Origin: a virus
DNA: 64,000 nucleotides
IMG/VR virus record: IMGVR_UViG_3300018036_000004
Coordinates: 38,477-102,476 of that record
Strand: one strand, 5' to 3'
The notes under the pieces: generated by a model
Told to the model about the DNA's origin: nothing
Databases searched by the model: none
The model's input: only the letters and a program-made list of their open reading frames with translations
Part shown: piece by piece, positions 13,907 through 56,097 of the stretch
Numbering within the stretch: the first letter of the stretch is position 1
Layout of the letters: each line of letters starts with the position of its first letter
Made by a program: the position numbers and the translations under genes

Positions 13907-14571
13907 ACAGGGTCATCTTTAAAGGGTGTTTAAGTAAGGTTTTTTACAGTCGATAGTTTGTTGGAACTTTTACCTTTAGGATTCCTTTGGTTTCATTATC
14001 TATATCCCAACCAAGACCTCCCCTTCGTTCAACATCAAATGCTCTCGACCAGTCTTCCATATCCTCTAGAAAAGTATTATAAAAGTTATCACGGTCACGA
14101 CCAAGATTGTACAATGTCCCAGAAGATGTAGTGATAGTGTATTCGAACTGCACATAAGGCATTCTATTCATTTCTATAATTTCGAAATCACTTACAACCT
14201 GTAATTCACGACGGTTTCGGCCGCGGCTATAAGACCTAGCTAATGTTGTAACCTTGTCCCGAACCAAGTCTAACCACTGTTGGGGTGTTCCAGCATCACT
14301 TAACCTTTCAGTTTCCGCTTGTAAAAATGTCTTATACCCTTCTAAGTGTCCTAGTAAGTTATCCTTTTCTCTTCCAGTCTGACCACGCATATAGTGCTTC
14401 AAAGTTTCTAAGGCTGAAAGTGTTTCCCTTATATTTATTAATTGTTCCTGTTTAGAAGCCAGTTTCTTTAATTGTTGAACTTCTTTAAGAAGTTGTTTTG
14501 CTGTTAATTTTCTCATGTGTTAACTCCTAGTTAACCTATTAAATTAATGTTTGCAAACATACATGGTCATC
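13895..14571. repeat. 23-bp direct repeats (13895-13917, 14549-14571) flanking gene 13944..14516
   Basis: GTTTGCAAACATACA(G/T)GGTCATC, one mismatch. Confidence 0.85.
13944..14516 (-). CDS. leader-A protein (putative internal head protein)
   Basis: MRKLTAKQLLKEVQQLKKLAS leader; AGGAG RBS. Confidence 0.7.
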   Translation of the reverse strand: MRKLTAKQLLKEVQQLKKLASKQEQLINIRETLSALETLKHYMRGQTGREKDNLLGHLEGYKTFLQAETERLSDAGTPQQWLDLVRDKVTTLARSYSRGRNRRELQVVSDFEIIEMNRMPYVQFEYTITTSSGTLYNLGRDRDNFYNTFLEDMEDWSRAFDVERRGGLGWDIDNETKGILKVKVPTNYRL

Positions 14572-15234
14572 CTAATATGCGTCTTTATTGTCTAGGTAAT
14601 TCATTAGAATTTTTGGTGCTTCTTTATCAAACACAGATTTAAAATGTGTAAAACACTTATCCATCGACTCATCTATATTTGGAGTAAGAATATTTTTCTC
14701 AACATCGTAAGGGTCTTGAAACAACCCGTAAAAATCACATTCGCTCTTATTGGTCCCATCTCTTGCGATCACATAATTGAACAAAATGAAATCACGACCC
14801 ACGACTAACTTCATCTCTACATGTCCCCAAGCACCTTTACCCCCTATATTAGATTTTATTTTCCAATCTAAACCTGTTTTCTTAGCCCAATTTTCCATAT
14901 AAGACAGGATTTTACCATAGGTGTCTTCAATGGCTTGTTTAGCGTCTTGGTCACATTCAGAACCTTGTTTCCACCAATCTATACAAACCTTTTGTTTTTG
15001 TACTCGAATAGGCTGTGTTCTTGTATAGGTGACATAGGCTATGTCACCTTGAACATTAATGTCTTCGATATAATGTTGTGAGACATGCTGAGCAGCCCAA
15101 GACTCTACTTGACCCAACAGGTCTTCTTCGTCTTCGTAAACGAAAACATAATCTTCTAACCAGTCTTTAGAGGCCAGTTTCTTTAATTGTTGAACTTCAA
15201 GAAGAAGTTGTTTTGCTGTCAGTTTTTTATTCAT
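14572..15234 (-). CDS. leader-A protein (putative internal head protein)
   Basis: MNKKLTAKQLLLEVQQLKKLAS leader. Confidence 0.7.
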   Translation of the reverse strand: MNKKLTAKQLLLEVQQLKKLASKDWLEDYVFVYEDEEDLLGQVESWAAQHVSQHYIEDINVQGDIAYVTYTRTQPIRVQKQKVCIDWWKQGSECDQDAKQAIEDTYGKILSYMENWAKKTGLDWKIKSNIGGKGAWGHVEMKLVVGRDFILFNYVIARDGTNKSECDFYGLFQDPYDVEKNILTPNIDESMDKCFTHFKSVFDKEAPKILMNYLDNKDAY

Positions 15235-15307
15235 AACACACCTTTTTGGAATTGTTATTTTAACATAAATGTTTTTTGTATAAGGATTCTATTGAATGTA
15301 TCTCTAG

Positions 15308-16753
15308 TTAATCTATTAAATAAATGTAAGCACTGGAGTCTGTCTCGATAATACCATCGTCAAACATAATCTCTAAAACCTGACTTACTTGTTTAGCGTC
15401 TACTTTAAACTTACGCATTACTTGTTTTGTTAAGTCTTCAATGAAAATAGCATCTTTACGACTTAGTAAGTCTTGAATGTACTTTTCCATCTTAGACTGT
15501 AAGTTTGCAAACTTCCACTTATTACGATCCATCATGTCCTTAGGTGAAAAGGTATTACGTTTAGGAAGAAACTTGTCAAAGTCATATCGTCCGTCTCCTT
15601 CTCGGGCTTGTAACCAAGCCAAAACACCTCTAGCAGAACCATGTGTACCAAACCTTTTAACAATGGAGAATCTATTATCTACCATGTACATTGTGTAACG
15701 ATCAATGTACTTGTTATTTTCAGAATCTGCGTTTCTTAAAGCAAGGAATGTGTATTCAGGAGAGATTCTTTTAGTGAAACTAGATTGATCTCTGGACCAT
15801 CCCGCTACACCTACGGCAGAGTGTGTAGGTATACCTTTTCTAGGAACACTGTCACCTTGTTTGTAGATAGGATACCCATAACCATTAAAGTCCGCTTTAA
15901 AGTTTCTACGGGCTTGTCTAGACTGGTTCATTTTAACAGCCCCTTGTAAATCCGGTTGTTCGGATTCTACAACAAACCTGTTTAAAGTAGACACATCACT
16001 ACCACCGGGTAACTCTAAAATCTCGTCTGGAGTTAAAGGACTAGCTTCGTACTCTTTCTTTTCCTGTGATAGTGGGCTTTGGTGGCCTCTATCTTCTTTT
16101 AAAGTATTTTTAAAAGTAGTAGGGTCATTAGAAACAGCGTTGGACTCTGCAAACTGTGAAACCTCTACTTTACGAGGATCTTTGTAAAAGATTTCGGCGG
16201 CGTCTATATCTTCCGAAACTCTTCTGTTTAATTTGGCTGTTCTAGGTTCTACAATCTGTTGTAACAAGTATAAGTTACTTTCGTGGTTGGAAGCCAATGT
16301 GATTAATAAATCCTCTAGACCTATTGTCATTAAACCAAAACCTTTTAAGTCCTCAATACTTTGTTCGATTAACTGTAAAAAGAACCTTTCAATGTGTAAG
16401 CCTCTTTTAATAGGATCTTGTACCTGAGAGAAACCTTGTAGGTATGAAAACATCAAAGGTGCTTGGTAGGCTAGTTTAAGTTGGCTAGTTCCCATAACCC
16501 CACCAATCTTTTCCGCCAAACTATCAATCTCTTCGTTTGTAGAGTTGTACAGTCTTTCGAAAAGTAAGTGGTCTTGGAAAAAGTGTGATCCGTATACAGT
16601 CCAATGGGAAGTCTGGTAAGAAATAGACATTGCTCTTAAACAGGCTAAAACAGGTCCTAGGATCTGTCCACCTACGGCCACCATTTCTAAGTCGTTAGTC
16701 ACATACCCATTTTTAGTAAAGTTTTCGTATTGTTGTTCCATAGTATCTTCCAT
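15308..16753 (-). CDS. Dps/ferritin-like domain fused to further small domains (may start at 16840 through an in-frame TGA)
   Basis: HWTVYGSHFFQDHLLFERLY...IDSLAEK Dps signature; RTA, RQA and KFA motifs between domains. Confidence 0.75.
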   Translation of the reverse strand: MEDTMEQQYENFTKNGYVTNDLEMVAVGGQILGPVLACLRAMSISYQTSHWTVYGSHFFQDHLLFERLYNSTNEEIDSLAEKIGGVMGTSQLKLAYQAPLMFSYLQGFSQVQDPIKRGLHIERFFLQLIEQSIEDLKGFGLMTIGLEDLLITLASNHESNLYLLQQIVEPRTAKLNRRVSEDIDAAEIFYKDPRKVEVSQFAESNAVSNDPTTFKNTLKEDRGHQSPLSQEKKEYEASPLTPDEILELPGGSDVSTLNRFVVESEQPDLQGAVKMNQSRQARRNFKADFNGYGYPIYKQGDSVPRKGIPTHSAVGVAGWSRDQSSFTKRISPEYTFLALRNADSENNKYIDRYTMYMVDNRFSIVKRFGTHGSARGVLAWLQAREGDGRYDFDKFLPKRNTFSPKDMMDRNKWKFANLQSKMEKYIQDLLSRKDAIFIEDLTKQVMRKFKVDAKQVSQVLEIMFDDGIIETDSSAYIYLID

Positions 16754-16928
16754 TTCGATTTCTTCGTTATACTCATAAGGACCACCCTGCCCCTCATAAG
16801 AACCTCAACCCCTTTTGAGTCTGCGTTGTTGTTTCCACATTGTTTTCACCGTATTAGTTTGTCTATCTAAGTTGTATAGTAATAACATTTTATGTAGACG
16901 ATAGTGTTTCTATTGAGAGGAGTGTTAC

Positions 16929-17318
16929 ATGAATATACAGTTTAAATTAAGTTTAGAATCTGAATACGAACTGTATGATTATTACGGGTATCCAGTAATA
17001 CCACAAAAGTTATTTTCGGATATTTACTATAAACATAATGTTAAAACTAACTCTGTGGCTTTTGTTTCAAGACAAGACAATAAGTATCTTATGTTAATGG
17101 TACCTATACCTAAATACTTAAACAGAGACGACCTTGAAAGAGTTACTTATCGTAATGACTTTTACTTTAGATGTGAGTTTATGTCTAATATAGAAGGTAA
17201 TCACGATAAGTGTTTCTTTATGGTTAAGGCTTTAGATGTAGACACTATACCTTATGTAGATACAAGTATCTGGGGTATATTTAATAGACAAATACAAGAG
17301 TTAAAGAGTAAAGAATGA
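16929..17318 (+). CDS. hypothetical protein
   Basis: GAGGAG RBS. Confidence 0.6.
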   Translation: MNIQFKLSLESEYELYDYYGYPVIPQKLFSDIYYKHNVKTNSVAFVSRQDNKYLMLMVPIPKYLNRDDLERVTYRNDFYFRCEFMSNIEGNHDKCFFMVKALDVDTIPYVDTSIWGIFNRQIQELKSKE

Positions 17319-18115
17319 GAGTTATAAACAGATGGAAAGAGTGTTACGAAGGTGTTCACACTCAAACACCACCCAATGAGTTTAAACAGTTGTTTTGTAA
17401 TAGCTGTATGAACACATCTTGTGAGTTATCTAAAGGTGGGGGTTTATCTTGGTCTAAACGCATGGCCTATCAAGTAGAGCGAATGTTAAACGATCCAAAG
17501 TTTGCAGACGAAAGGGACCCAGAGTTCCAACAAATTAGAAACTTAGACTTTAAAGACTTATTACATAGAGAACTAACTTTAAAGGTAAGTTCGGACAGAG
17601 GGGACTGGTCTATACCAACAGACATAGAAGTTTCTGTAGAGGCTAGTAAGTTACTTAATACTATTGATGAGTTAGAACACCCACAAGGTTTTACACCAGA
17701 ACTTTTACCAGAGGCTGTATTACCTCAACAACCTGTTCAACAGGATACAGAATACAAGTACTTTGTAAAAGGTAGTGGAGATAACACTTACATTGTTACT
17801 AATACAAAAGATAACTGGACTTGTACTTGTCCTAGTTTTACTTACTCTAAGTTAGACACACCTACTTGTAAACATATAGACCAACATAAGCCTGTTAAAC
17901 AAGACACACAAGACACAACACAAGAAGCGCCAGTACCAAGACCACCTCCTATTAATAAAGTCCCACAAATGAACACACAACAACCTACAACAGGTATTAT
18001 GTTAAGTGGAAATAAAGAACAGCCCGAAGATGTAGATCCATGGGCTGCTCCTAGTGAAGTTAGTTCAGACAAAGGTACATTAAAGTCTGGAATGAAGTTT
18101 AGTTTTAAGAAGTGA
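17315..18115 (+). CDS. SWIM zinc-finger protein
   Basis: WTCTCPSF...CKH. Confidence 0.7.
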   Translation: MRVINRWKECYEGVHTQTPPNEFKQLFCNSCMNTSCELSKGGGLSWSKRMAYQVERMLNDPKFADERDPEFQQIRNLDFKDLLHRELTLKVSSDRGDWSIPTDIEVSVEASKLLNTIDELEHPQGFTPELLPEAVLPQQPVQQDTEYKYFVKGSGDNTYIVTNTKDNWTCTCPSFTYSKLDTPTCKHIDQHKPVKQDTQDTTQEAPVPRPPPINKVPQMNTQQPTTGIMLSGNKEQPEDVDPWAAPSEVSSDKGTLKSGMKFSFKK

Positions 18116-18763
18116 TTACCACCCATAAAAGGACAATACATCTTCTAGGACTTCCTTATCACCCCAAAAGTTCTTCTTTAATTGTTTAATAGCCTCTGGG
18201 TCTTGGAATAGTTTGTCACCATAGTCTTTAAAGGACTTATCAATAGTCTTAAAGTGTTTTTCAATTAAAGATGTAAGTTGTTTAGTGTTGTTGAATATAG
18301 TTAAAGGGATGAAAAAGTTTATAGGTAAGTATACTTTTTTGCTAACAAAAGAGTCTTGTAATGATAACGGACCATCATCCATAATTTCAGCTTCGTATTG
18401 TTTATTTCGTTTTAGGTATTCTCTTGGGATTACACTATACACATTAAAGTACTTATTGTGTACAACATTACAATAGAGGACAAGTTCATCGTCCTCTATT
18501 GACACAGAAACCTCAAATACACAAGCTAGTTGTAAGTGTCTGGTGTTTACTACCGTAAACACATTACCTTCGTCTTGTTCCATAACACTAAAATTACCAG
18601 ACCAAGGTAAGTTTTCAAAGTCGTTTATACCATTAACGATGTCTATTAGTGGTTGTAGTTGGGGTAATAAGTCTAAGGAATCTGCTAACAATTCCGCTTG
18701 TTGTATTAAAGAAGGATCGTTTCTTAATACTAATTCTTGTAGTTTTTCAATTTCTGAGGACAT
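18116..18763 (-). CDS. leader-B family protein
   Basis: KLQELVLRNDPSLIQQAELLADSL; GGAGA RBS. Confidence 0.7.
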   Translation of the reverse strand: MSSEIEKLQELVLRNDPSLIQQAELLADSLDLLPQLQPLIDIVNGINDFENLPWSGNFSVMEQDEGNVFTVVNTRHLQLACVFEVSVSIEDDELVLYCNVVHNKYFNVYSVIPREYLKRNKQYEAEIMDDGPLSLQDSFVSKKVYLPINFFIPLTIFNNTKQLTSLIEKHFKTIDKSFKDYGDKLFQDPEAIKQLKKNFWGDKEVLEDVLSFYGW

Positions 18764-18785
18764 ATTTTCTCCAATAGTTAGTAAA

Positions 18786-18811
18786 TATTAAAGAACTATT
18801 AAAGAACTATT
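18786..18811. repeat. 11-bp tandem duplication (TATTAAAGAAC)
   Basis: Copies at 18786 and 18797 plus a partial third; resembles a class-2 promoter motif on the minus strand. Confidence 0.7.
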
Positions 18812-19037
18812 GTGAGTCTATATAGGCCTGTATATCTTCTATAGCTTGGTCCACTGTACTAGGTATTTCATCATAAGATAAGTAGGAATCCAAACTATCC
18901 GAAATATATTGTAAGGCTAGTTCTAAAGGTTGTTCTAACTTAATACAAGCTAAAACAGCACATGCTATGGCTTGGAAAAATTGTGGATTGTTCTTTTCTT
19001 GTTCAACCCACTTTTGAAACTCTTGTTCAATACTCAT
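18807..19037 (-). CDS. hypothetical protein
   Basis: ATGA overlap with the upstream gene. Confidence 0.55.
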   Translation of the reverse strand: MSIEQEFQKWVEQEKNNPQFFQAIACAVLACIKLEQPLELALQYISDSLDSYLSYDEIPSTVDQAIEDIQAYIDSQ

Positions 19038-19456
19038 AGTTCCCACCAGAACTCAATCCAAGACCCATCGTGTAAGTGTAACCAATCCACATTATGTAAA
19101 TTGTCCTTACCATAAACACATAAAGTATTCATTTTACCTTTAAACTGTTTTAAGTCGAACTGAATAGTTTGAATGGTATGTCCTGTATCGTAAATATCAT
19201 CTAACAATAAATAGGACTTACTAGATTGTAAGTCTGCATCATGAATAAAAGATACGGCTTTATCTTTATTGTCGTAAGTCTGGTACTTAACAATAGACAC
19301 AGGTAAGTCGTGTATGTTACTTAGATGCACACCCATAGGTAAACTACCTCTATAAACACACACAATATGGTCAATGTTATTTTCCTTAATGTACTCACCT
19401 ATTCTTTGTATGTCCGTCTGATACATATCTATAGAATATAAAGTTTTATTTATCAT
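19034..19456 (-). CDS. type I phosphoribosyltransferase (purine-salvage-like)
   Basis: VYRGSL and the PRPP-binding motif LLLDDIYDTGHT. Confidence 0.8.
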   Translation of the reverse strand: MINKTLYSIDMYQTDIQRIGEYIKENNIDHIVCVYRGSLPMGVHLSNIHDLPVSIVKYQTYDNKDKAVSFIHDADLQSSKSYLLLDDIYDTGHTIQTIQFDLKQFKGKMNTLCVYGKDNLHNVDWLHLHDGSWIEFWWEL

Positions 19457-19457
19457 G

Positions 19458-20417
19458 TCATTCTCCTAACTCTAAATAATGTAAAACCATTTCTCTAACT
19501 TCATTAGATACTTCTAAGTTATTAATACTGTCGTGTAAAGTGTCTTCTGTTTTAGTGTTCAGTTGTTCTTGTAATTTGTGTACAAAAGAATCCATCTCCA
19601 TCTGTCTCTCTACTTGGCGTCTACGACCTTCCATATCAAACACTTGCTCTGGAGCCTTAACTTTTAAAGGCTTTTGTGTACATACCACACCTTCTTTTGT
19701 ACATTCTATTAACACACAACAAGGTATACGATTAACTTCGTCTTCAGATAAAGAACCACGCGTTAATGAGCCTGTATTAATAATAGTCTTATTACCTACT
19801 TGTGTAATACCTTGGTTCTTATGCCAGTGTCCAAAACAAAACACATCAGGCTCTAAGTCTTCTAAGTCACTATACTTAATAATGTCTTCACCCTCAAACA
19901 TGGTACCGCCTTTCTCACTGGCTAGTATATGGGCTACACATATTAGTATATCTTCGTTCCCTTTCTTTATATGTTCAAACAAAGACTTGTCATAACTAGG
20001 ACCTGGATAAGGAACACCAACTACTCGTACTTTAAAGCCATCCTTTTCAAACACTACCTCATGTTCGTTATACAATCTTTTAAAGATACCTGTAGCATAC
20101 AACACACCTAAAGGTTGTTGTGGTAGGAACTTATAATCTCCATACACACTGTCATGATTACCAGGGCAACAGTAAACGGGTATCTTGTAATCAATATGGT
20201 GTTCACTTGTCTTAATAATAAGTTTATGAGAGTTTTTTGTAGGAGACTTAACATGAAAAAAGTCACCCCCATCTAAGATAGCCATTGCGTTATTTGTGTA
20301 GGCTATATCCCTAACTTGTCCTAGTTTTTCTAATACTGTATCATCCCAGTCATCTAAACGAGAACTAGGTTTATGATCAGACATATGAACATCCGTTCGC
20401 CATACTAAGTTAATCAT
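19458..20417 (-). CDS. SbcD/Mre11-like metallophosphoesterase nuclease
   Basis: DVH, GDFFH, GNHD and GHWH motifs; adjacent to the SbcC N-half. Confidence 0.85.
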   Translation of the reverse strand: MINLVWRTDVHMSDHKPSSRLDDWDDTVLEKLGQVRDIAYTNNAMAILDGGDFFHVKSPTKNSHKLIIKTSEHHIDYKIPVYCCPGNHDSVYGDYKFLPQQPLGVLYATGIFKRLYNEHEVVFEKDGFKVRVVGVPYPGPSYDKSLFEHIKKGNEDILICVAHILASEKGGTMFEGEDIIKYSDLEDLEPDVFCFGHWHKNQGITQVGNKTIINTGSLTRGSLSEDEVNRIPCCVLIECTKEGVVCTQKPLKVKAPEQVFDMEGRRRQVERQMEMDSFVHKLQEQLNTKTEDTLHDSINNLEVSNEVREMVLHYLELGE

Positions 20418-21582: not shown

Positions 21583-21629
21583 AATATATAGTACAATATA
21601 AGTACTAAAAGTTAGAGGGTTATTCTAAT

Positions 21630-22169
21630 TTATCTTGTCCCAGGTATTAGTTTAAGGAACTTAGGGTCGTCCATTAGTTTCTTTAAAATAGGCTCTAACC
21701 TTGTTAAGTTTTTCTCAAAAGTAGTATCAATAAAGTCCAACATATCGTCGTAAGACATCTCTAATACATCTGTGGATACTACGGGTACTTTTCTGTTTAG
21801 GATTTGAGTTTGTACAAACTCAAAGGCCTTATTATTACCTCTCCAAGATCCAGCAGAAGAAGGATTGATTGTATACATAACACCATTACCTGTAAGTTTT
21901 ACACCTGTATGTAACTCTCCATCCCTAATGATAGCGGTTGGCTCTAAAGACACATATAAACCAAAGTTGGTAGACATCCATTCCATATAGGTAGATTCTA
22001 ACTCTGTATTTTTAATTTCTATTAACTGTGTAAGTCTGTAATTGTATACCGCGGAATTAAAAACATCCCTTTCCTGTTTTGTTAAAGGTAAAGAATCCGC
22101 TAACACAATTGCTTGTGTTACTAAGGAATCGTCTTCTTTTTCTACTAAATCCAATAACTTATGTAACAT
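21630..22169 (-). CDS. leader-B family protein
   Basis: KLLDLVEKEDDSLVTQAIVLADSLPL. Confidence 0.7.
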   Translation of the reverse strand: MLHKLLDLVEKEDDSLVTQAIVLADSLPLTKQERDVFNSAVYNYRLTQLIEIKNTELESTYMEWMSTNFGLYVSLEPTAIIRDGELHTGVKLTGNGVMYTINPSSAGSWRGNNKAFEFVQTQILNRKVPVVSTDVLEMSYDDMLDFIDTTFEKNLTRLEPILKKLMDDPKFLKLIPGTR

Positions 22170-22198
22170 TGTCTTATACTCCCTTTATTAAACTAAGA

Positions 22199-22795
22199 CT
22201 ATTTACACAAAGGTGTAGCCTTATTTAATCGTGTCAGTTTAGGGTCCATTGCTAAGAACTTGGTTTTAAGGTGAACCTTAGCAGATATGTCATTCCAATA
22301 GTGTTCCACTACATCTTCCACTTTATCCCAAGTATCGTCTACTGTGGTATCTATAGTTAGTTCCTTAAAGGCACCTTTAAGTTCTTTCTCTGCATACTTA
22401 AATGCCTTGTTACCGATAGAGCTTTGATAGTACCAGTTACCGTTCTTAGGGCAAAAGTAGATCATGTCGTCAAACCTTATACCCACACGAATAATGTTTG
22501 GGGCAATACTTACAGGCTCGATTTGGAAACTGAATGAGTAAGAGTCACTTTTACTCCCATCAGCAAAACCTAAACCTGGATTTTGTATACTGCGACCAAC
22601 ACTAACATAGTCATTAGAACCCCAACCATTAAAGAATATGTTGGGTAGCACTAAGGCAATCTCTGTTTCCAACGCATAAATCTCTTGGGCATTAAGACCT
22701 ACTAAGTACATAAGTTCTTTTACTTGTTCAATGTAAGCGAGGTTACCTGTTTCAACAAGTCTCATTAACTTTATTGCGTCTTCTGATAATCTCAT
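22199..22795 (-). CDS. leader-B family protein
   Basis: LSEDAIKLMRLVETGNLAYIEQ; paralogous to its neighbours. Confidence 0.7.
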   Translation of the reverse strand: MRLSEDAIKLMRLVETGNLAYIEQVKELMYLVGLNAQEIYALETEIALVLPNIFFNGWGSNDYVSVGRSIQNPGLGFADGSKSDSYSFSFQIEPVSIAPNIIRVGIRFDDMIYFCPKNGNWYYQSSIGNKAFKYAEKELKGAFKELTIDTTVDDTWDKVEDVVEHYWNDISAKVHLKTKFLAMDPKLTRLNKATPLCK

Positions 22796-22797
22796 TC

Positions 22798-23370
22798 TTA
22801 AAATCCTGCGTAGGATCTAAAAGCCGATTGATTAACCCATCTTTGGGCTTCCCCTGCTAAACGGTTAATACGATTACGAAAGTATCTTTCTGCATACTTA
22901 ACAAAGTCTTCGTATTCTGTATCCCACTTAACTTCAAACAAACCAGGTCCTAACTTTTTGTTAAGAACCTTAATAGCAAAATCATCGGCTCTTTTATTGA
23001 CATTAGTTTCATTGTTAGAACGAAAAGGTCCTACAGTAGATCCTCCCTCAAATACAGGCTGAACCTTAATTAAAGGCATGTTTGGATTAGGGTAGAAACC
23101 ACCAACATAAACAGGAAACATATATTCATACTCATCGTCGTCTGTTCGGATTACAAGAACATCTTGTAAGTCATACCGACCATAGTCGTCCCAAATCATT
23201 TCAGTGAAAGCTATCTTTTTCCAATCTACGATAAGTTCCTTAATGTACTGTTCTTCATCTCTAGGCAACTGTATGTCTTCTAATAAAAGAACAGCCTGAT
23301 TTACAAACGTTTCATTACCATTAGTAATTAAGTCTTTAAGTTTTTGAGCGTCTTCTGATAAGTTACGCAT
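22798..23370 (-). CDS. leader-B family protein
   Basis: LSEDAQKLKDLITNGNETFVNQAVLLLEDI. Confidence 0.7.
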   Translation of the reverse strand: MRNLSEDAQKLKDLITNGNETFVNQAVLLLEDIQLPRDEEQYIKELIVDWKKIAFTEMIWDDYGRYDLQDVLVIRTDDDEYEYMFPVYVGGFYPNPNMPLIKVQPVFEGGSTVGPFRSNNETNVNKRADDFAIKVLNKKLGPGLFEVKWDTEYEDFVKYAERYFRNRINRLAGEAQRWVNQSAFRSYAGF

Positions 23371-23928
23371 AGTTTCTCCATAATAAAAAAGGATGTGTTT
23401 TAAACAAAAAACACATCCTTATATACAATTTATTGCTACTTACATTGCAGGTGTATAGATTGTAGTGTAAACAGTCACAACACCTTTTCTAGTAGTTTCT
23501 TCAATGTTTTTTAAGTCCCATTCGGCACCATAAACTTTATCCAACCATTTTGAAACAGGTCCCCAAATTGAGTGTGCATGGTCCAGCAATACCTCGTCCC
23601 ACAAGTCATAATCTTCTTCTTCTAACATAATTAATTCTTGGTGTTGTTGGGGTGTCAGTTTCTTAGATAACTCAAGATCTAGTTGTCCCTTATATTCATC
23701 TTGCTCTACTTTAATACCTCGAAAATTCTTTTCTAAGGCTTTGATAAGTTCAGGCATATCAAACTTATCGAAGTTACCGGCTTGTTTAGTTGAAAGGGCT
23801 TCTACTTCTTGTTTAAGACTAGCTACTTGGTTAGCCAATCTTTTTAGGGTTTGTTTATTAGTCATAGTTTCTCCATAATAAAAAAGGATGTGTTTAAACA
23901 TAAACACATCCTTATATACAATTTATTG
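23368..23928 (-). repeat. 66-68 bp direct repeats (23368-23435, 23863-23928): promoter motif + hairpin + RBS + ATG
   Basis: Copies differ only in or at the edge of the hairpin loop. Confidence 0.9.
23440..23865 (-). CDS. leader-A-like protein
   Basis: MTNKQTLKRLANQVASLKQEVEALSTKQAG; GGAGA RBS before ATG 23865. Confidence 0.7.
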   Translation of the reverse strand: MTNKQTLKRLANQVASLKQEVEALSTKQAGNFDKFDMPELIKALEKNFRGIKVEQDEYKGQLDLELSKKLTPQQHQELIMLEEEDYDLWDEVLLDHAHSIWGPVSKWLDKVYGAEWDLKNIEETTRKGVVTVYTTIYTPAM

Positions 23929-23936
23929 AAAATGTT

Positions 23937-25145
23937 TTAGAGATCTAAATCGTCTAAATCACTTAAAACATTATCGATGTCATTACCTGCCGTATCTTCC
24001 TCTTCGTCTTCATCTGTAAAGTTATCTGCGGCCCCTGTACCCAATAATGGTAAGACAGTGTTACGCAAAGATAAGTAGTCGTCTTCAGATTGTATTAAGT
24101 GTGTTCTTAAACGCTCTGTACCTTGTAGTTTTAACGGACCACTTGGACAAGTTTCCCAAGTTAACCAAGAACCACCTTTCTTAATAATACCGTGAGCAAT
24201 GGCAATTTCCATCATAGTACGAACATTGTCAATACCTTCACCCCAACGAATATAAAAGATCTCTTGACGACCTTGGGATCGTGACATCTTACACTTAACG
24301 GCTTCCACTTTAATAATACCACCCACAACACGTTCATCTGTTTTATGAGTAAGTTTATTGTGTTCCTTAGCCTTTTCGTTTTGTACACGCCGTAATTCCA
24401 ATCTAACAGAAGAATAAAACTTCCAAGCATTTCCACCTTGTGGTTTACTTTGTTTACCCATACTGTTCATTGTAGCACGGATCTGTGAGATACCAATAAT
24501 AGCAGTTCCAGTCTTAGCGATAACTTTCTTTAAGTTAGGTAGTTCCTGTGACCATACAGATTGTAACTCACCAATCTTACCTTGCTCTGCTACATCCAAG
24601 GCGTCTCGTTCAGATAGTCTTCTTGGAATAGCGGCTCCCACAGAGTCAAACACAATAATGTCAACACCAGCAGCGGCGTATGCCATTGCATACTTAATAC
24701 CATCTTCTAAAGACTCTGGTTGTAATAACTCAAAACGATCAGGGTCTGTAATAGGAACACCAAGTGCCATTGCATAATCAGGAACAATGTCGTTTTCCCA
24801 ATCAATGTAAAGTGCGGAACCACCTTCAGCACAAACACGAGCACATGCTTCCAAACATAAAGTAGTTTTACCAGCCGACTCATGTCCCCATACTTGGGTA
24901 ACACGACCACGAGGAAAACCTGGACAAGGGGCTACACCAAACTTATTAGGTTCACCTCCAATAAGATAATCTACTACATCTGAACCACTACTAATGTGAG
25001 GTAAGGATTCTTTTAATGCGTCATCATCCAAGGCTACACGAATACTGGTAAAGTCCTTACCAGCTTTCTTTTTTAAGTATTCACGAGCGGCTGCAAGTGG
25101 GTTAGACCCACCACTTTGTATTTCACTTTTAGCTTTCTTAGCCAT
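23937..25145 (-). CDS. recA: RecA recombinase
   Basis: ISSGS, GHESAGKTT, VFDSV, ISQIR and GGNAWKFYSSVRL motifs. Confidence 0.92.
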   Translation of the reverse strand: MAKKAKSEIQSGGSNPLAAAREYLKKKAGKDFTSIRVALDDDALKESLPHISSGSDVVDYLIGGEPNKFGVAPCPGFPRGRVTQVWGHESAGKTTLCLEACARVCAEGGSALYIDWENDIVPDYAMALGVPITDPDRFELLQPESLEDGIKYAMAYAAAGVDIIVFDSVGAAIPRRLSERDALDVAEQGKIGELQSVWSQELPNLKKVIAKTGTAIIGISQIRATMNSMGKQSKPQGGNAWKFYSSVRLELRRVQNEKAKEHNKLTHKTDERVVGGIIKVEAVKCKMSRSQGRQEIFYIRWGEGIDNVRTMMEIAIAHGIIKKGGSWLTWETCPSGPLKLQGTERLRTHLIQSEDDYLSLRNTVLPLLGTGAADNFTDEDEEEDTAGNDIDNVLSDLDDLDL

Positions 25146-46893: not shown

Positions 46894-46910
46894 TCTTTGG
46901 AGATTAAAAA

Positions 46911-47369: not shown

Positions 47370-47370
47370 T

Positions 47371-47384
47371 AATAGGTTGTTTAT
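47371..47384 (+). promoter_or_regulatory. class-2 (putative late) promoter motif AATA-NN-TTGTTTAT, representative copy
   Basis: Repeated upstream of virion and leader genes (see findings). Confidence 0.65.
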
Positions 47385-47392
47385 CTTGTATT

Positions 47393-47421
47393 AAAAGGAG
47401 AGTGATACACTCTCCTTTTTT
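47393..47421 (+). terminator. terminator-like hairpin immediately downstream of the class-2 promoter motif
   Basis: AAAAGGAGAGTG-ATA-CACTCTCCTTTTTT. Confidence 0.7.
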
Positions 47422-47432
47422 AGGTTTAAGTT

Positions 47433-48467: not shown

Positions 48468-48528
48468 ATAATCCTAGTATTGTTGACACGCATATAGTAT
48501 ATATGTACAACAAGATTAGGAGATAGCT

Positions 48529-50422: not shown

Positions 50423-51020
50423 GTATTGGAGTAACTTTGTATATTTTGACAGCCATGACTTTGAAGGAATGTTTTCCAACGAAGACGGTATACATAACTT
50501 TCCTACATACAGTGAAGTCTTAGACGAAGACTCCCAAGAGAAATTAGATAGTATTAGGGAAGTGTTAGAAGAATTACCACCAAGGGAAGCCGATTTTATT
50601 GACTTGTACTTTTTTAAAAAAGTAACACAGTTGGGTATAGCAGACTTGTTTGGTGTTTCTCAACCTACAGTATGTTATAGGTTAGCTAAAGCCGCTAAAA
50701 GATTAAGTTACATAATTAACACACCAAACTATCCTATTAGTAGTGTGGAAGAAGACTTGAGGGGTGTGTTAACAGACGAGTTGGACATTAATATAATGTT
50801 GTTAATGTTACAAAAAACTTGTCAGTCAGAAGTAGCCCGAGAATTAAATGTTTCACAAGGATTAGTTCGTTATAGGTTTATGCGTAACTTAAAACAAATT
50901 AAAAACTTTAAGGATTTAGATAAAACCATAAAGTGTTTAGAGCATGTGTCTAATCACTTTAACATTCTAAAAGACACTAACAGATCAAAACTAGAAGAGT
51001 CTATTACTTATTCCTTATAA
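50415..51020 (+). CDS. protein with two sigma-70 region 4-like HTH domains
   Basis: LPPREADFIDLYF...TQLGIADLFGVSQPTV and CQSEVARELNVSQGLVRYR. Confidence 0.7.
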   Translation: MSKYWSNFVYFDSHDFEGMFSNEDGIHNFPTYSEVLDEDSQEKLDSIREVLEELPPREADFIDLYFFKKVTQLGIADLFGVSQPTVCYRLAKAAKRLSYIINTPNYPISSVEEDLRGVLTDELDINIMLLMLQKTCQSEVARELNVSQGLVRYRFMRNLKQIKNFKDLDKTIKCLEHVSNHFNILKDTNRSKLEESITYSL

Positions 51021-51068
51021 CAATAAATACTTTATACATTACATAGTGTGTCAGTAAAAAGGATTGTT

Positions 51069-51374
51069 ATGGATAAATCTTCTACCAAAAGAGTACTAAT
51101 GGCCCGTAGTGTGGCTACACAATGGTTACAAAAACATAGTTCGGCTGAGTACAGACTGCATGTGTATCCTACATTAGGCACAGCACAAACTTTACCTTCG
51201 TGGTTAAAAGCTTTTAGGGATGGTAAGTCTAAGTTTGGTAGTTTACAATCTTTTGATTTTGCTGTTGAAATTGGTAGTGATTCCTTTTGTATTCGTAGTC
51301 GTGACAAGGATAGCCTCATAACTTTAAATGCTAAGTTAGAAGAGATGGGTCACGAAACCTCAGGTGTTTGGTAA
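51069..51374 (+). CDS. hypothetical protein with MARSVAxxWL leader-like motif
   Basis: Class-2 motif upstream; AAGGA RBS. Confidence 0.55.
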   Translation: MDKSSTKRVLMARSVATQWLQKHSSAEYRLHVYPTLGTAQTLPSWLKAFRDGKSKFGSLQSFDFAVEIGSDSFCIRSRDKDSLITLNAKLEEMGHETSGVW

Positions 51375-51375
51375 G

Positions 51376-51804
51376 ATGGCTGTTTCATTAGTACAATCCG
51401 AGTTTACTTACCAAAGTGGTACAGCACCTACTTTGTATATGTTTACTATTGTATCTGATCTTAGTGGTACATTAAGTGTTCGAGATATACAAGACCCTTA
51501 TGGTTTTATTATCTCTCCTTATACACAGATACCTAAATCAGTAACTGACGACATACAAAGTGCTATGTTGCAAGTGGAGGGTCTTTTGAGTAGTACAAGT
51601 GCTTTTAATGGTAGTGTTAACTTTGTAGGAGAGACTACAAAAGTTATCACTTTCCCAAGTGTACAACCTAACCTAAATTACAGGGTTCATTTAACAAGTG
51701 ATATATTCGCACCTTTCAAAGTTACAAGTAAAACACTTACAAGTTTCACTATCGAATGTGGTGCGGAAATTACAGCCACTGTTTCGTTCGATGTTTTTAT
51801 TTAA
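51376..51804 (+). CDS. putative virion protein
   Basis: Beta-rich; ITFP...Y.V...KTxTSFTI tail-fibre-type C-terminus. Confidence 0.5.
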   Translation: MAVSLVQSEFTYQSGTAPTLYMFTIVSDLSGTLSVRDIQDPYGFIISPYTQIPKSVTDDIQSAMLQVEGLLSSTSAFNGSVNFVGETTKVITFPSVQPNLNYRVHLTSDIFAPFKVTSKTLTSFTIECGAEITATVSFDVFI

Positions 51805-51816
51805 CAAGGATAAGTT

Positions 51817-53418
51817 ATGAATAGACAACAAAAAGAAAACCTTAAAGGTCTACTAATGAGTGGAGACAAGGGTTCCATTAATCAAGCACTATCTTTGATG
51901 GATGCTTTAGATATGGCTACACAAGAAAAGGATAGTGAACTTATAAGAGAAGTTACTAATTACCTTTATGAGGAGGGTAGTGTAGACAACGATTACTTCG
52001 AACGCTCCCAAACTTTAAGAAAAGAAATGGTTCGTTTTAAAGGTGGTGTGGTTAAGGATTTAGTGGACTTTGTAGACGAAGTTGTACATGGTTGTTGGAA
52101 GGGTCCAAAAGGTAACAAACCTACAGGTTCCGCAATGCATAGTGAAAAGACTGTTTTTAATACAGATGAACTGGATTTTCTTTATTCTGTACAAGGTGAT
52201 TATAGTGCTGAAAGTCGTAACTTCGGAACGGCTTATAATTTTGTGAATTGTTTAAAACAATCCTTAAAACAGTATGGTCTAATACAAAAGGATGATCAAG
52301 TATACGCCCGCTATGATAGGGAAGACTTCATGTTTGAAGTAAGCTTAGACTTAAAGCAGATTAACTTTAATAAACTAAAATTAGCAAGTACAGGGAGTGA
52401 TACTATGCGAAAACTAGCTAGAACGGAACGTAAAAAAGGTATTGAGGTTTGGGTTTCCCGTAGAACAACAAACTTTCCAAAAAATGTAAACGATAAAAAG
52501 TATTGGCAAGGATACTTAGAGATGTTAGCAGACGTTCATGAATGGGATGAAGACGTTTATGAGCAGATGAAGATAGAAACCGACGAGGACGTGCTTTTAG
52601 AGAATATAAAACTAACCGATATAAACGACCTTGGAGACAATGCTATATTGACTTTCGATGTGGATGTTTCGTTTAATGATTCTTATTATAAACACGCAAG
52701 GAGTAATACTATGCGAAAATTAACTAAGAGACAAGCAAGTCGTAAACTGGATGAGTTGTACGGTCAACTCACTAACAATAAACAAGCCTATCTAACTAGA
52801 AGAGCAAAAACTGAAACCGTAAAGTTCACTATGGACTTTAATGAGATGTTTTCGTATGCCCAATTACGAGGTCATGATATAACTGATAGAGGTGTTATTG
52901 AGGGATTAATAATCCCTGAGTGGCAGGTAGAGGAAAAGGCTGAAGACTTTGTTATGGGTAATTATGGAGACGTGGATTGGGAAATCTACACTACCAAAGT
53001 TAAAGGAAGACCTAGAATTGACTTACATGCTGTAAGTCAAGGATATGAAGATTGGGAGATGGATGATAGCCACTATGGTGGTACCGTTTCTGGAACACTG
53101 GAGGTAACCCTTCATATTTCTGACGATAATTCTTCAAGACGTGCTCGTTTCTCTGAAGGACCCGAAGGTACAAAAGAGTTCGAAAAGTGGAAAGCCGAAC
53201 AACCCGAAGAGTTCCAAGAAGAATGGGATGCTAATACTGAAAAGTACAAAGATAAGTTTAAACAAGCCAAGTTAACTCGTAGACAAGCAAGTCGTGCTTT
53301 AGATCGTTTACATGCACAAGTTGTAGGTACTAAGCGTACAGCAAGTTCTAGAATGACTAAACGTCAGGCCTCTAGAAAGTTAGACTTGTTACACAAAAAA
53401 CTTACTACTAGACGATAA
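51817..53418 (+). CDS. multi-module (polyprotein-like) putative internal head protein
   Basis: Leader-B N-terminus; three (K/R)xT(K/R)RQASRxLD repeats; two internal RBS+ATG sites. Confidence 0.7.
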   Translation: MNRQQKENLKGLLMSGDKGSINQALSLMDALDMATQEKDSELIREVTNYLYEEGSVDNDYFERSQTLRKEMVRFKGGVVKDLVDFVDEVVHGCWKGPKGNKPTGSAMHSEKTVFNTDELDFLYSVQGDYSAESRNFGTAYNFVNCLKQSLKQYGLIQKDDQVYARYDREDFMFEVSLDLKQINFNKLKLASTGSDTMRKLARTERKKGIEVWVSRRTTNFPKNVNDKKYWQGYLEMLADVHEWDEDVYEQMKIETDEDVLLENIKLTDINDLGDNAILTFDVDVSFNDSYYKHARSNTMRKLTKRQASRKLDELYGQLTNNKQAYLTRRAKTETVKFTMDFNEMFSYAQLRGHDITDRGVIEGLIIPEWQVEEKAEDFVMGNYGDVDWEIYTTKVKGRPRIDLHAVSQGYEDWEMDDSHYGGTVSGTLEVTLHISDDNSSRRARFSEGPEGTKEFEKWKAEQPEEFQEEWDANTEKYKDKFKQAKLTRRQASRALDRLHAQVVGTKRTASSRMTKRQASRKLDLLHKKLTTRR

Positions 53419-53443
53419 GACTTAGTGTTTTGTGGTTAGACAT

Positions 53444-53478
53444 AAGGGTACACATACAAGTGTACCCTTCTTTGTTTA
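53444..53478 (+). terminator. intrinsic terminator
   Basis: AAGGGTACAC / GTGTACCCTT plus T-rich tail. Confidence 0.7.
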
Positions 53479-53489
53479 TAGGAGATAGT

Positions 53490-53765
53490 ATGGACTCTGT
53501 AAGATTTATTAGAGTATGGTGTGTTGTAAGAGATGGTTTTGTTTACACTAAACAAGGAAACCTAGGACAAGGACACACAGCAATACCTTGGCAGGTTTTA
53601 TTAAAGTTACATTTTAAAGTACCTTACACACAAGAACTTATATTAAGTGATTGGAATAGTATACCAGATACTAATAAGAAGTATGTCTATATAGATAGAA
53701 GAGAACACCAAGTTGTACTACAAGACTACTTAGGGGCTTTAGATGAATGGGTAGAACTTAAATAG
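53490..53765 (+). CDS. hypothetical protein
   Basis: AGGAGA RBS before ATG 53490. Confidence 0.6.
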   Translation: MDSVRFIRVWCVVRDGFVYTKQGNLGQGHTAIPWQVLLKLHFKVPYTQELILSDWNSIPDTNKKYVYIDRREHQVVLQDYLGALDEWVELK

Positions 53766-53803
53766 TTAGTTTATACGCTAATACTATTAAAGTAAGGTTC
53801 AGT

Positions 53804-54526
53804 ATGAAAAAACAATCAAAAGCAAATCTAACACCTAAAAGACAAATAATGGCATCTAACCAAAAGGAAAATAAAATGTCAAGAAAAATAACAGCCAAAG
53901 AACTTTTAAGAGAAGTCAGAACTTTGAAGAAACAAGCAGGTGAGAATCCTTGCGCCCCAAGACTAATTGAATACTCCGAAGATAGTGAGTTAAAGTCTCT
54001 GATTGAGCGAAGCATAGGACCAGATGGTTTGATGTATGGTTGGGGACACTTTACCTTGAAAAATATAGAGGTAGTGGATGGGATCGCGTACTTTGATGGG
54101 AACATTTCGGGTGAAGTCCCTGTTATGAAAGTGACCCCTTGGTTTGAAACTGCTAACCACCCACAAGTACAAAAAGCATTCAAAGAACTTGAGAAAGAAC
54201 TGAAGTCTTTTGTAGCGAAAAACGGTCTTTCCGATTTGAGGGTAGTCGCTAGTAACGACGATTATAACAGAAATGTAGACTGGATTACATCGGTTTCTAT
54301 CGTAGATAGCATAACGAATCGAAAGGTGTCCTTTCTTATAGGAGGGTGGGACACTGATTCAGCCGTTGTAGAGTCATGGTTGGGAGACCATTGGTCAAAG
54401 AAGTTCTCCGGAAATATAGATGCAGATGTTGCTATGGCAGTTTCAAATATGAGGAAGTTCATCAATAAAGACCTACTCCAGCAAGTATTAGAATCCAGAG
54501 CAAAGTTCGAAGCCAGAAAAAGATAA
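53804..54526 (+). CDS. leader-A protein (alternative start 53876)
   Basis: MSRKITAKELLREVRTLKKQAG. Confidence 0.7.
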   Translation: MKKQSKANLTPKRQIMASNQKENKMSRKITAKELLREVRTLKKQAGENPCAPRLIEYSEDSELKSLIERSIGPDGLMYGWGHFTLKNIEVVDGIAYFDGNISGEVPVMKVTPWFETANHPQVQKAFKELEKELKSFVAKNGLSDLRVVASNDDYNRNVDWITSVSIVDSITNRKVSFLIGGWDTDSAVVESWLGDHWSKKFSGNIDADVAMAVSNMRKFINKDLLQQVLESRAKFEARKR

Positions 54527-55421
54527 TCTTATGCGAAAACAATCTAAAGCAAATCTAACACCTAAAAGACAACGAACTCAATACTCATGTATGGCTACCT
54601 CAATGAGTATGTGTTTACAGGCCTTAGACTATCCACACGCTAATGAGGATGAAGTCAATAAGGTAATGGGTGCTTTACCGATGAGAGGGGCCGCTTGGGA
54701 ACAAGCTTTGGCATGTGCTCAGCATTATGGGTGTAGAGCCACATTAACAATGCCTTCTACAGTTAAGCAATTAAAAGAATGGACTGACCGAGGTGTTCCT
54801 GTAATGATTGCTTGGAACCCAGAGGGTCGTGATTGGTCTCATGCTTCTGTAGTCTTCGATGTAGATGAAGACTTAAATGTATATGTTGCTGACCCTAACA
54901 TTCCAGACCCAGATGAAACTGTAAGGGTTGTACCTAAAACAGAGTTCTATTCAAAGTGGTACGAGAAGTGGCCGAATTATCTAGTTCGTCGCCCTGCCTG
55001 CGCTATCGAGAGAGAAATAACTCCGGATGGGAGACAAATAATGGCATCTAAAAAGGAGAATAAAATGTCAAGAAATCCAGAAATAAGAAAAATTGCTCGA
55101 GAAATCGAATCTATTAAAGGTCAATTACAAGGCAAAACAGCAGGGACTTGGGATCTTGGAACAGAACTTTCTGCGTTGAAGAAAAACTCTGGAATCCATT
55201 TCAAGTTATCAGACAAGTTAATTGGGGAAGCCGTGGGAGAAGTGCAATTATACGAAGATTTGCGTAAAGGCTACAGCCTTTTAGATCAAGTAAAAGCGAT
55301 GTTGCAACAAACAATAGAAGAAATCGAATCCATGCAGAGAAAAATTAAGTCTGATAATGGCATCTAACCAAAAGGAAAATAAAATGTCAAGAAAAATAAC
55401 AGCCAAAGAACTTTTAAGAGA
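53846..55421. repeat. 68-bp exact direct repeat (53846-53913, 55354-55421); related partial copy at 55032-55075
   Basis: ATAATGGCATCTAACCAAAAGGAAAATAAAATGTCAAGAAAAATAACAGCCAAAGAACTTTTAAGAGA. Confidence 0.9.
54531..55367 (+). CDS. C39-like cysteine peptidase domain fused to a leader-A-like module
   Basis: QRTQYSC, WSHASVV, VADP triad pattern; then MSRNPEIRKIAREIESIKGQLQGKTAG. Confidence 0.75.
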   Translation: MRKQSKANLTPKRQRTQYSCMATSMSMCLQALDYPHANEDEVNKVMGALPMRGAAWEQALACAQHYGCRATLTMPSTVKQLKEWTDRGVPVMIAWNPEGRDWSHASVVFDVDEDLNVYVADPNIPDPDETVRVVPKTEFYSKWYEKWPNYLVRRPACAIEREITPDGRQIMASKKENKMSRNPEIRKIAREIESIKGQLQGKTAGTWDLGTELSALKKNSGIHFKLSDKLIGEAVGEVQLYEDLRKGYSLLDQVKAMLQQTIEEIESMQRKIKSDNGI

Positions 55422-56097
55422 GGTTCGTGCGATTAAAAAATTAGCCGCGGGTACAAGTATTCCATCGGTTTTTCCATCTATTACAAGACAATTAAACATT
55501 CCAGAAGGTGTACAGTTCCTTCCTGATGGTAGTGGTGAGTTTGAAATTATTACAGAAAACGGCGAACATATTTACGCTGTTTTAGGAGATAGTGGTTACG
55601 AAATTAGTGGAAAAGGTGCTAAGAAACCTTTTATTAAAGCAGACATTACTTTCGATGAAGAGGGTGAAGGTGTTACAAACGATCCTAAATCCATTGTGAG
55701 TGCTATTCAAACTATGTTAAACTGGTACGACAATGCTTTGTTAACCTCTATTAAAGACGACGAACTGGAAATGAGAAAACTTTTCTCTATGGCTTTTAAA
55801 GGTAGTAGAACCTTTGATTATGATAGTTGGTATAAAAAAGGTAAGATTTATATTATTACAGGTAAGTCTTACGGTATGCCACAGCAAGTTGTTGGTGGCG
55901 GCGGTATAGAGTTTCAGATCTATAGAGAGGGGGATAATAAGGCCAGTGTAAACGCTTTATACCCAGATAAAAGACGACATATGGGAACTTATATTGTTAA
56001 CAATGTCCAATGGACTGCTAATGGTGTTCCATTAATTGACCCACGAGAATTTAAAAAGATTTTCTCTAAGGTTAGCGCTAAAACTAAAAAATGGTAA
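55357..56097 (+). CDS. leader-A protein (probable start 55384)
   Basis: MSRKITAKELLREVRAIKKLAAG. Confidence 0.7.
   Translation: MASNQKENKMSRKITAKELLREVRAIKKLAAGTSIPSVFPSITRQLNIPEGVQFLPDGSGEFEIITENGEHIYAVLGDSGYEISGKGAKKPFIKADITFDEEGEGVTNDPKSIVSAIQTMLNWYDNALLTSIKDDELEMRKLFSMAFKGSRTFDYDSWYKKGKIYIITGKSYGMPQQVVGGGGIEFQIYREGDNKASVNALYPDKRRHMGTYIVNNVQWTANGVPLIDPREFKKIFSKVSAKTKKW

Follow-up and report, generated by a model that had tools for sequence, protein, structure and literature searches.

The question raised by this locus is why proteins without similarity to one another should begin with nearly the same short basic helix. The window, by which we mean the whole 64,000-nucleotide (nt) stretch of DNA analysed here, makes up the final 64 kb of an IMG/VR virus record of 102,476 bp that is estimated to be 58% complete. 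An earlier note had listed six N-termini in it that share a basic amphipathic helix, here called Leader A, and had proposed that this helix is a portable tag loading diverse cargo into the phage head. The present analysis found that Leader A is a family of N-terminal segments constrained at the protein level, that the cargo behind it is diverse and has been swapped between related phages, and that a C39-like cysteine peptidase encoded between two of the leader genes bears the same kind of helix behind its catalytic domain. The comparisons suggest a sorting-and-processing tag, in which the sorting to the head and the processing are less firmly supported than the portability.

The full genome was scanned with a hidden Markov model (HMM) of the leader, as the earlier note had suggested, and the profile built from the four close copies gave seven significant copies across the whole record, four of them in the window and three outside it. 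A broader 28-sequence profile, applied to the six-frame open reading frames (ORFs) of the phage itself, returned the same seven copies, with E-values from 1.6e-13 to 2.5e-9, and its next match had an E-value of 0.2. The copies at 14516, 15234, 53876 and 55384 constitute the tight family of the window. The three outside it (genome positions 10190, 12454 and 13160) lie on paralogous leucine-rich repeat (LRR) proteins, in which Leader A is followed by a second common segment, LLxLLNSxDxxQVNQALSL, and then by the repeats. All six N-termini of the earlier list are present in the sequence, but only the four just named belong to the tight family, since those at 23865 and 55065 were not significant with either leader HMM and resemble Leader A in general form alone, as a basic helix ending in K-x-A-G.

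Within this genome, the seven copies of this short N-terminal peptide are common to five unrelated cargo types. Leader A has a net charge of +3 to +5 and an isoelectric point (pI) of 10–11, and the pI of the cargo is 4.6–7.0. The helical hydrophobic moment of the leader is 0.44–0.52, compared with 0.22–0.27 in shuffled sequences, and its hydrophobic residues form a heptad-like face (A6, L9/10, V13, L16, A20) without a hydrophobic core. The alignments and the hydrophobic moment together describe an N-terminal helical leader in the range of 15–30 residues with conserved hydrophobic positions. The cargo proteins matched nothing in Pfam or PHROGs except for the LRR proteins, cargo 4 had no relatives in the related-locus search and no match in the ESM Atlas, and blastn against known phages gave no match.

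The cargo parts showed no blastp similarity to one another, in agreement with the claim of divergent cargo behind a shared leader, and the DNA places the boundary between the two parts sharply. The copies at 14516 and 15234 are near-identical across the leader codons only and diverge both upstream of the leader and after KLASK, which bears out the earlier observation that the identity of these neighbouring leaders stops after KLAS; a second pair shares 68 identical nt (53846–53913 and 55354–55421). The codons of the leader copies differ synonymously at 166 positions and non-synonymously at 145, and the conserved Leu, Val, Arg, Lys, Ala and Ser residues are written with different codons. As the copies differ synonymously at so many codons, the constraint on the leader acts on the protein, and an RNA- or DNA-level element was ruled out as its explanation because the conserved residues are encoded by varying codons. 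The sequence TTTAATAG, which lies upstream of some leader genes, was also considered and rejected as a shared promoter signal.

To follow the leader beyond this genome, a 24-position profile was run against 1.84 billion representative proteins with a threshold of E <= 1e-3, and 22 proteins were found with scores of 35–46 bits. The leader starts at residue 1 or 2 in 18 of the 22 proteins; in three others (P0011, P0015 and P0022) it lies at most about 13 residues from the called start. The remaining protein, P0009, holds it at residues 171–193, directly behind a peptidase domain; it is a 95%-identical orthologue of the window peptidase and reads ...DGRQVMAS-RKLTANNLLQEVRKLKKQAG-cargo. When the proteins of this phage and of its closest relative are included, the leader proteins number 30, and by blastp their cargoes sort into 14 mutually unrelated clusters; similarity among leader proteins always stops at KK-x-A. 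In most of them S, G or A comes next, and F, Y, K, H, N and V occur at this place too. Only the LRR cargo of this wider family has a Pfam family, and a 267-kb contig in the public data encodes these proteins.

Orthologous cargoes are 45–64% identical, and their leaders are about 70–90% identical. The orthologues of cargo 3, which are likewise 45–64% identical, all start directly with Leader A and have no counterpart of the extension at 53804–53875; for this reason the start at 53876 proposed in the earlier note is the likely one. The closest relative, designated G001, is a 37.8-kb fragment with core proteins 50–84% identical to those of this phage, and it is collinear with the window around the terminase. 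In both of them, the gene directly downstream of the peptidase starts with MAS(N/S)..K(M)SR(K/E)(I/L)TA(K/T)ELL..EVR.LKKLA, whereas the cargo in this slot measures 133 amino acids (aa) in G001 versus 215 aa in the window, with the similarity gone beyond about residue 41–59. The comparison of related genomes therefore revealed a cargo swap of the predicted kind, in which the leader is kept at a syntenic slot and the cargo is unrelated. Another G001 protein bears MSNKREIAKIAREIRELKKQAAG, which is intermediate between Leader A and the variant at 55065. Two proposals of the earlier note thus gained strong support, namely that the tag is portable and swappable and that cargo is recruited by recombination behind it; the grounds are the 14 unrelated cargo clusters behind one leader, the different cargo at the syntenic slot of G001, the abrupt break in DNA identity at the leader end and the higher conservation of leader than of cargo among orthologues. 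The portable, swappable nature of the leader is accordingly well supported by the sequence comparisons.

The gene between the two leader genes (54531–55367, 278 aa) connects the leaders with a highly conserved peptidase that is itself tagged, a link that the earlier note had not drawn. The encoded protein is assigned, from its sequence and its predicted structure, to family C39 or a C39-like group with a papain-like fold. It matches Pfam PF13529 (Peptidase_C39_2, clan CA) with an E-value of 5.1e-9, above the curated cut-off, and Q14, C20, H104 and D121, corresponding to the Gln of the oxyanion hole and the Cys/His/Asp catalytic set, are invariant in 26 relatives. The alignment-based AlphaFold2 model of the domain reached a predicted local distance difference test (pLDDT) value of 87, and its best Foldseek matches were PeiR and the double-glycine leader peptidases PCAT1, LahT150 and ComA, with template modelling (TM) scores of 0.72–0.80 normalised to the target and a Foldseek probability of 1.00 for LahT150, ComA and PCAT1. 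The single-sequence model of the whole ORF was poor (pLDDT 45). Fusion or pairing with an ABC exporter was looked for, and no transporter domain was found in the 278-aa ORF or in 120 listed homologues of 182–487 aa.

The peptidase domain is encoded at 52 loci on viral contigs of 37–619 kb with 58–85% identity, and a large protein collection holds at least 552 peptidase clusters, some with the JGI names 'double-glycine peptidase' or 'bacteriocin exporter'. Among the proteins that this phage has in common with G007, a complete relative genome of 435,804 bp with terminal repeats, the peptidase is the best conserved (76% identity, versus 60% for the portal, 49% for the terminase and 46% for the sheath), and the same is true of the proteins in common with G001 (84%). 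Complex prediction of peptidase residues 1–162 with the leader N-terminus gave a score of 0.00, which speaks neither for nor against binding.

Conservation of the peptidase across relatives extends to ...LVRRPA.AIEREIT.DG(R/K)Q(V/I)MAS, and there is none after MAS. In 37 distinct relatives and 112 database homologues, the domain ends with GRQ(V/I)MAS and is followed by a short helix tag, which is often the very end of the protein in forms of 183–211 aa. In orthologues that are 91–95% identical, the tag is either Leader A-like (LTAKELLQEV, LTASGLLREV) or an EIRKIAREI..SIK..L variant as in the window. The tag type tracks the lineage, with Leader A or the EIRKIAREI variant in the AT-rich lineage and RVAxR(Y/F/W)L-like tags in distant, GC-rich relatives.

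The joint between domain and tag is made by a cassette, ATAATGGCATCTAA..AAGGA(A/G)AATAAAATG, with three copies at 53846, 55038 and 55354. It encodes the linker end together with a Shine-Dalgarno motif 7 nt ahead of the leader ATG, and in one reading frame it also provides the stop codon of the peptidase ORF, the end of which overlaps the gene 55357–56097 by 11 nt. Because the cassette holds a Shine-Dalgarno motif and an ATG, translation may also start inside the ORF and give a product that begins with the helix at 55065. As an observation in its own right, a cassette with three roles (53846–53913, 55038–55075 and 55354–55421) has the look of a prefabricated joint at which genes could be fused or split.

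The relatives' loci contain another motif, (A)-x-RVAxR(Y/W/F)(L/V/I), which is found repeatedly in coding-strand genes, at either end of the protein or where two domains meet. The G007 genome contains 20 RVAxR(Y/W)L tags in 17 genes, compared with about 2 expected from a rough residue-frequency estimate; an Ala stands two residues ahead of the tag core in 14 of the 20, and some tags lie at extreme C-termini with only 2–6 residues after them. The tagged proteins include one of 2493 aa (L059:9266-16747), located between the portal and major capsid genes, with 2H phosphoesterase, poly(A)-polymerase-type nucleotidyltransferase, topoisomerase IB and GNAT domains, as well as a second topoisomerase IB protein, a UvrD-type helicase and the peptidase itself. 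The HMM of the RVAxRYL tag built from the relatives did not match Leader A, and a search of the complete G007 genome and of 51 other loci with the Leader A HMM gave no match. Since neither profile detects the other, the two are best described as occupants of the same slot and not as proven homologues.

The RVA-type tag is present in the window too, in a degenerate form, since the 101-aa protein encoded at 51069 is orthologous to the tagged G007 protein with MAKRVARRWVGKFST. A tag-like junction also occurs in the Dps/ferritin-like protein of the window (PF00210, E-value 2.6e-4, under the curated cut-off; phrog_3636); its G001 orthologue is 287 aa long and ends with the tag-like KRAAIRKVLFKARIR, and the window form has SRQARRNFKA at the corresponding place, with an extra C-terminal domain behind it. 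A match to the tag pattern in the RecA-like protein (23937–25145; AAAREYLKKKAG) was set aside, as we take it to be the ordinary RecA N-terminal helix. Its mimicry of tag plus site is a warning against calling tags by a short pattern alone. In addition, a third recurring motif, (L)IRLA(x)xxP(E)LRxxLLP(L)L or ALIRLASTLPxGSxERKxILAGL, was seen at the N- or C-termini of several proteins in the relatives L004, L005, L014 and L020.

Candidate cut sites were examined next to the tags and in the head genes. A [KR]xA[GSA] site lies at most 14 residues behind 5 of 16 and 9 of 45 non-terminal tags, against a background of 3.2% at random positions, with p-values of 1e-4 and 1e-5. By per-protein shuffling, three proteins show the greatest excess of [KR]xA[SG] sites, which number 11 versus 3.2 expected in the 1415-aa ORF adjacent to the G007 peptidase, 4 versus 0.7 in a scaffold-like protein of G007, and 5 versus 0.5 in the 533-aa ORF at 51817 of the window. 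The head module of G007 runs in the order major capsid protein (phrog_2522, E-value 4e-50), a 230-aa protein, the scaffold-like protein, and proteins of 601 aa, 259 aa, 2493 aa and 323 aa (the last two tagged), followed by the portal and the terminase. The scaffold-like protein (543 aa, L059:4704-6335) is extremely acidic, has an EF-hand calcium-binding loop and is a candidate scaffold; it contains four [KR]xA[SG] sites (RKAS, KEAS, RVAS and KKAS) and one KEAA. The 601-aa protein matches phrog_18299, 'head maturation protease', with an E-value of 2.8e-11, and the acidic 259-aa protein ends with KKAS-HGYVLTA. The portal of all three phages carries (K/R)-x-(T/V)-A-S about 40 residues from its start. 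The Pfam models S77, S78 and S49 had no match in four large relatives, and ClpP matched in only one of them. Taken as sequence patterns, the tags and sites would fit a cut at the tag–cargo junction, whether the cargo stands before or after the tag, and they favour neither the head-protease homologue nor the C39-like peptidase as the enzyme.

The explanation that we favour, with somewhat less than an even chance of being right, is that Leader A serves a lineage of giant myoviruses as a portable tag for sorting and processing at the N-terminus of proteins: the helix of the tag docks, its junction is cut and the cargo behind it is swapped. The tag would consist of a basic amphipathic docking helix, L-T-A-K-x-L-L-x-E-V-x-x-L, and a short junction in which K-K-x-A usually precedes S, G or A; any of many unrelated cargo proteins could stand behind it. 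While the virion (head) is being assembled, the helix would bring the cargo to a conserved docking partner, and cleavage at the junction would free the cargo from the tag; new cargo is gained by recombination at the leader end. The peptidase would go to the same place as the cargo, because the same kind of helix stands behind its catalytic domain. For the trimming enzyme there are two candidates, the C39-like peptidase and the head-maturation-protease homologue of the complete relative. Head targeting and cleavage are plausible but unproven, and the evidence for them is circumstantial, comprising the tagged peptidase, the tagged polyproteins of G007 and the enrichment of [KR]xA[SG] sites. A wider version, in which helix tags (Leader A, RVAxRYL and others) address enzymes, LRR proteins and multi-enzyme polyproteins to the head throughout a clade of 100–600 kb phages and a tagged C39-like peptidase with the architecture of the herpesvirus protease-scaffold precursor trims them, is on the unlikely side in our estimation; were it true, the peptidase would represent a new class of virion maturation protease, and the tags could be programmed to pack foreign proteins into capsids.

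Several points weigh against such a packaging tag. The p-values for site enrichment are modest, and those from shuffling are uncorrected for the number of proteins tested. As F, Y, K, H, N or V stands behind KK-x-A in some proteins, an A-S/G site in the strict sense does not hold for the whole family. The contig, at an estimated 58% completeness, lacks the head module of this phage with its capsid, scaffold and head protease, and all members of the Leader A family are metagenomic singletons. The profiles do not support homology between Leader A and the RVAxRYL tag, and the tagged UvrD-like helicase and small replication-block protein could act in the cell and not in the virion.

The leader might, alternatively, be only a recognition helix and cleavage signal for the C39-like peptidase, acting in the way of a double-glycine leader, with polyprotein modules or diverse effectors inactive until trimmed and with no packaging role at all. 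The peptidase does share its fold and catalytic set with the double-glycine leader peptidases, recognition of the LahT150 type (PMC6363468) matches a conserved amphipathic leader in front of diverse cargo, and the neighbourhood agrees, as the peptidase gene is flanked by two leader genes and adjoined by modular ORFs rich in [KR]xA[SG]. We nevertheless consider this unlikely, given that the leader does not end in GG, GA or GS, that tags at extreme C-termini with 2–6 residues after them make little sense for a leader that is then cut off, and that the peptidase itself is tagged, often as its very last residues. The same C-terminal tags, which leave no room for a downstream cut, would be expected if the helix were an uncleaved docking or oligomerisation module, that is, a coiled-coil type of address to another phage structure or to a compartment of the infected cell, such as a replication or assembly factory, and not to the capsid. 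Such a module would also agree with the heptad-like hydrophobic face, with the predominance of DNA/RNA enzymes among the tagged proteins of the relatives and with the one tagged small protein in the replication block; however, the small-residue junctions conserved between tag and cargo (KKxA-S/G after N-terminal tags, A-x before 14 of 20 tags) and the presence of tagged polyproteins inside the G007 head gene module argue against it and make it improbable in our view. Export through a host transporter, in the manner of double-glycine leaders with ABC exporters, can appeal to the C39-like peptidase and to the JGI names of some homologues, but with no transporter domain in the homologues shown, with cargo made of globular or LRR proteins of 60–300 aa instead of small peptides, and with a leader devoid of a hydrophobic core, it appears very improbable.

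If the leader is indeed a packaging tag, it defines the proteins that giant uncultured phages bring into the cell with their DNA, which in the relatives would include topoisomerase IB, nucleotidyltransferase, helicase, Dps-like and LRR proteins. A bacteriocin-leader-type cysteine peptidase would then join the few enzymes that are linked to virion maturation, and the 21-residue tag would offer a handle by which chosen proteins could be loaded into capsids. The leader profile has a practical use in searches as well, since it retrieves cargo genes that cannot be recognised by anything else. Our literature search found no description of this peptidase in phages, of the leader or of the RVAxRYL tag, and nothing relevant for C39 in combination with prohead. 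The positions of the features discussed are collected in Table 1.

Table 1. Leader A copies, their cargo, the peptidase gene and other tag-related features of the window (positions count from the first letter of the window).
Feature	Position	Strand	Remarks
Cargo 1	13944..14453	-	169 aa, pI 5.8; no family match; metagenome orthologue P0008 has the same leader
Leader A copy 1 (MRKLTAKQLLKEVQQLKKLAS)	14454..14516	-	N-terminus of gene 13944-14516; E 1.7e-12
Cargo 2	14572..15168	-	198 aa, pI 4.8; no relation to cargo 1; same leader in orthologue P0011
Leader A copy 2 (MNKKLTAKQLLLEVQQLKKLAS)	15169..15234	-	N-terminus of gene 14572-15234; E 2.4e-10
Tag-like junction SRQARRNFKA	15893..15922	-	in the 481-aa Dps/ferritin-like protein (15308-16753)
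Loosely similar leader (MTNKQTLKRLANQVASLKQEVEALSTKQAG)	23776..23865	-	gene 23440-23865; family HMM not significant
101-aa protein, N-terminus MARSVATQWLQKHSS	51069..51374	+	orthologue of G007 protein with RVAxRWV tag MAKRVARRWVGKFST
533-aa modular ORF	51817..53418	+	leader-like repeats MRKLTKRQASRKLDEL at 52714-52758 and MTKRQASRKLDLL at 53353-53391
Upstream in-frame extension (RQIMASNQKENK)	53804..53875	+	gene 53804-54526; duplicates the opening 14 codons of the peptidase gene, joined to the linker cassette
Leader A copy 3 (MSRKITAKELLREVRTLKKQAG)	53876..53941	+	preceded by AAGGAA-N7-ATG; E 1.6e-13
Cargo 3	53942..54526	+	194 aa; in the largest cargo cluster
C39-like papain-fold cysteine peptidase domain	54531..55019	+	residues 1-163
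Conserved linker TPDGRQIMAS, predicted flexible	55020..55049	+	end of peptidase domain; pLDDT falls from 68 to 41 across it
Leader-like helix variant (MSRNPEIRKIAREIESIKGQLQGKTAG)	55065..55145	+	inside the peptidase ORF; preceded by AAGGAG-N7-ATG
C-terminal module of peptidase ORF	55146..55367	+	predicted long helix, low-confidence model
Leader A copy 4 (MSRKITAKELLREVRAIKKLAA)	55384..55449	+	gene 55357-56097; E 7e-12
Cargo 4	55450..56097	+	215 aa
Leader B proteins	18116-18763, 21630-22169, 22199-22795, 22798-23370, 51817-53418, 5305-5778		also in L055 LRR genes, behind Leader A

Some further observations concern the surroundings of these genes. A second N-terminal segment, referred to as 'Leader B' (L.xL..xxDxxxxxQAxxLxxxL), is common to at least six otherwise dissimilar proteins. 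A near-identical cassette of about 70 nt occurs at 23371–23440 and 23866–23935, upstream of the genes 22798–23370 and 23440–23865, and contains a promoter-like box (AATAAATTGTATATAAGG), a hairpin (GGATGTGTTT...AAACACATCC), a T-run and then GGAGAAACTATG. The 1716-aa protein at 5885–11035 starts with MTFPGSIYAPPGVYTQ, looks tail-sheath-like from its N-terminus and is conserved at 70% in G001 and 46% in G007.

Several known systems resemble the one described here in part. In phage T4, with its capsid-targeting sequence, and in phiKZ and SPN3US, with their propeptides, a short N-terminal peptide on unrelated proteins that are packed into the head and ejected is removed by the head protease; papers on this subject include PMC5694885 and PMC10052503. 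The present leaders share with them the short N-terminal peptide on unrelated proteins, and the many paralogous or modular cargo proteins recall those of the giant phages. The T4 tag, however, has about 10 residues and ends in L/I-x-E, and phiKZ-type sites read S/A/G-x-E, whereas a 21-residue basic helix ending in KK-x-A-(S/G), a candidate packaging tag, is found here; a C39-like cysteine peptidase bearing the same tag is a further difference.

The double-glycine systems (LahT150, ComA, PCAT1) are comparable in the peptidase fold with its Q/C/H/D set and in the N-terminal helical leader with conserved hydrophobic positions. In LahT150 a groove recognises the helical leader by its hydrophobic residues, and almost any residue is accepted after the cut (PMC6363468). 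The likeness extends to one enzyme family serving many divergent substrates with varied residues behind the cut (PMC6363468). Unlike in those systems, there is no ABC transporter and no GG, GA or GS end here, the cargo consists of whole proteins, the context is a phage and the peptidase is tagged.

In herpesviruses, cleavage by assemblin at V-Q-A/S removes a C-terminal tail that binds the major capsid protein and thereby frees the scaffold (PMC4498786). The protease-scaffold precursor, with its R-site and M-site, combines a protease, a release site of the form x-x-A followed by S/T, and a nested in-frame gene with its own start; the present gene recalls it in its order, with GRQ(V/I)MA-S after the peptidase domain, an internal Shine-Dalgarno motif with ATG, and then the helix tag. 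Assemblin is a Ser-His-His protease and the enzyme here a papain-fold cysteine peptidase; the likeness is one of architecture only. In the staphylococcal phage 80alpha, an N-terminal motif common to non-homologous capsid and scaffold proteins is trimmed by the cysteine protease Prp (PMC5744158). Assembly depends on this motif but can proceed if it is not cut (PMC5744158). Prp differs in being a host enzyme of another fold that cuts F/A, and the 80alpha motif has 13–14 residues and no long basic helix.

Encapsulin cargo-loading peptides and the C-terminal tail of the HK97 protease are short terminal peptides that steer unrelated cargo, including ferritin-like proteins, into an HK97-fold shell. 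The encapsulin tags remain uncleaved, and ferritin-like proteins are classic encapsulin cargo. The sequences are unrelated, and the likeness lies in the Dps/ferritin-like protein of this phage group, which is tagged at its end or at a domain junction.

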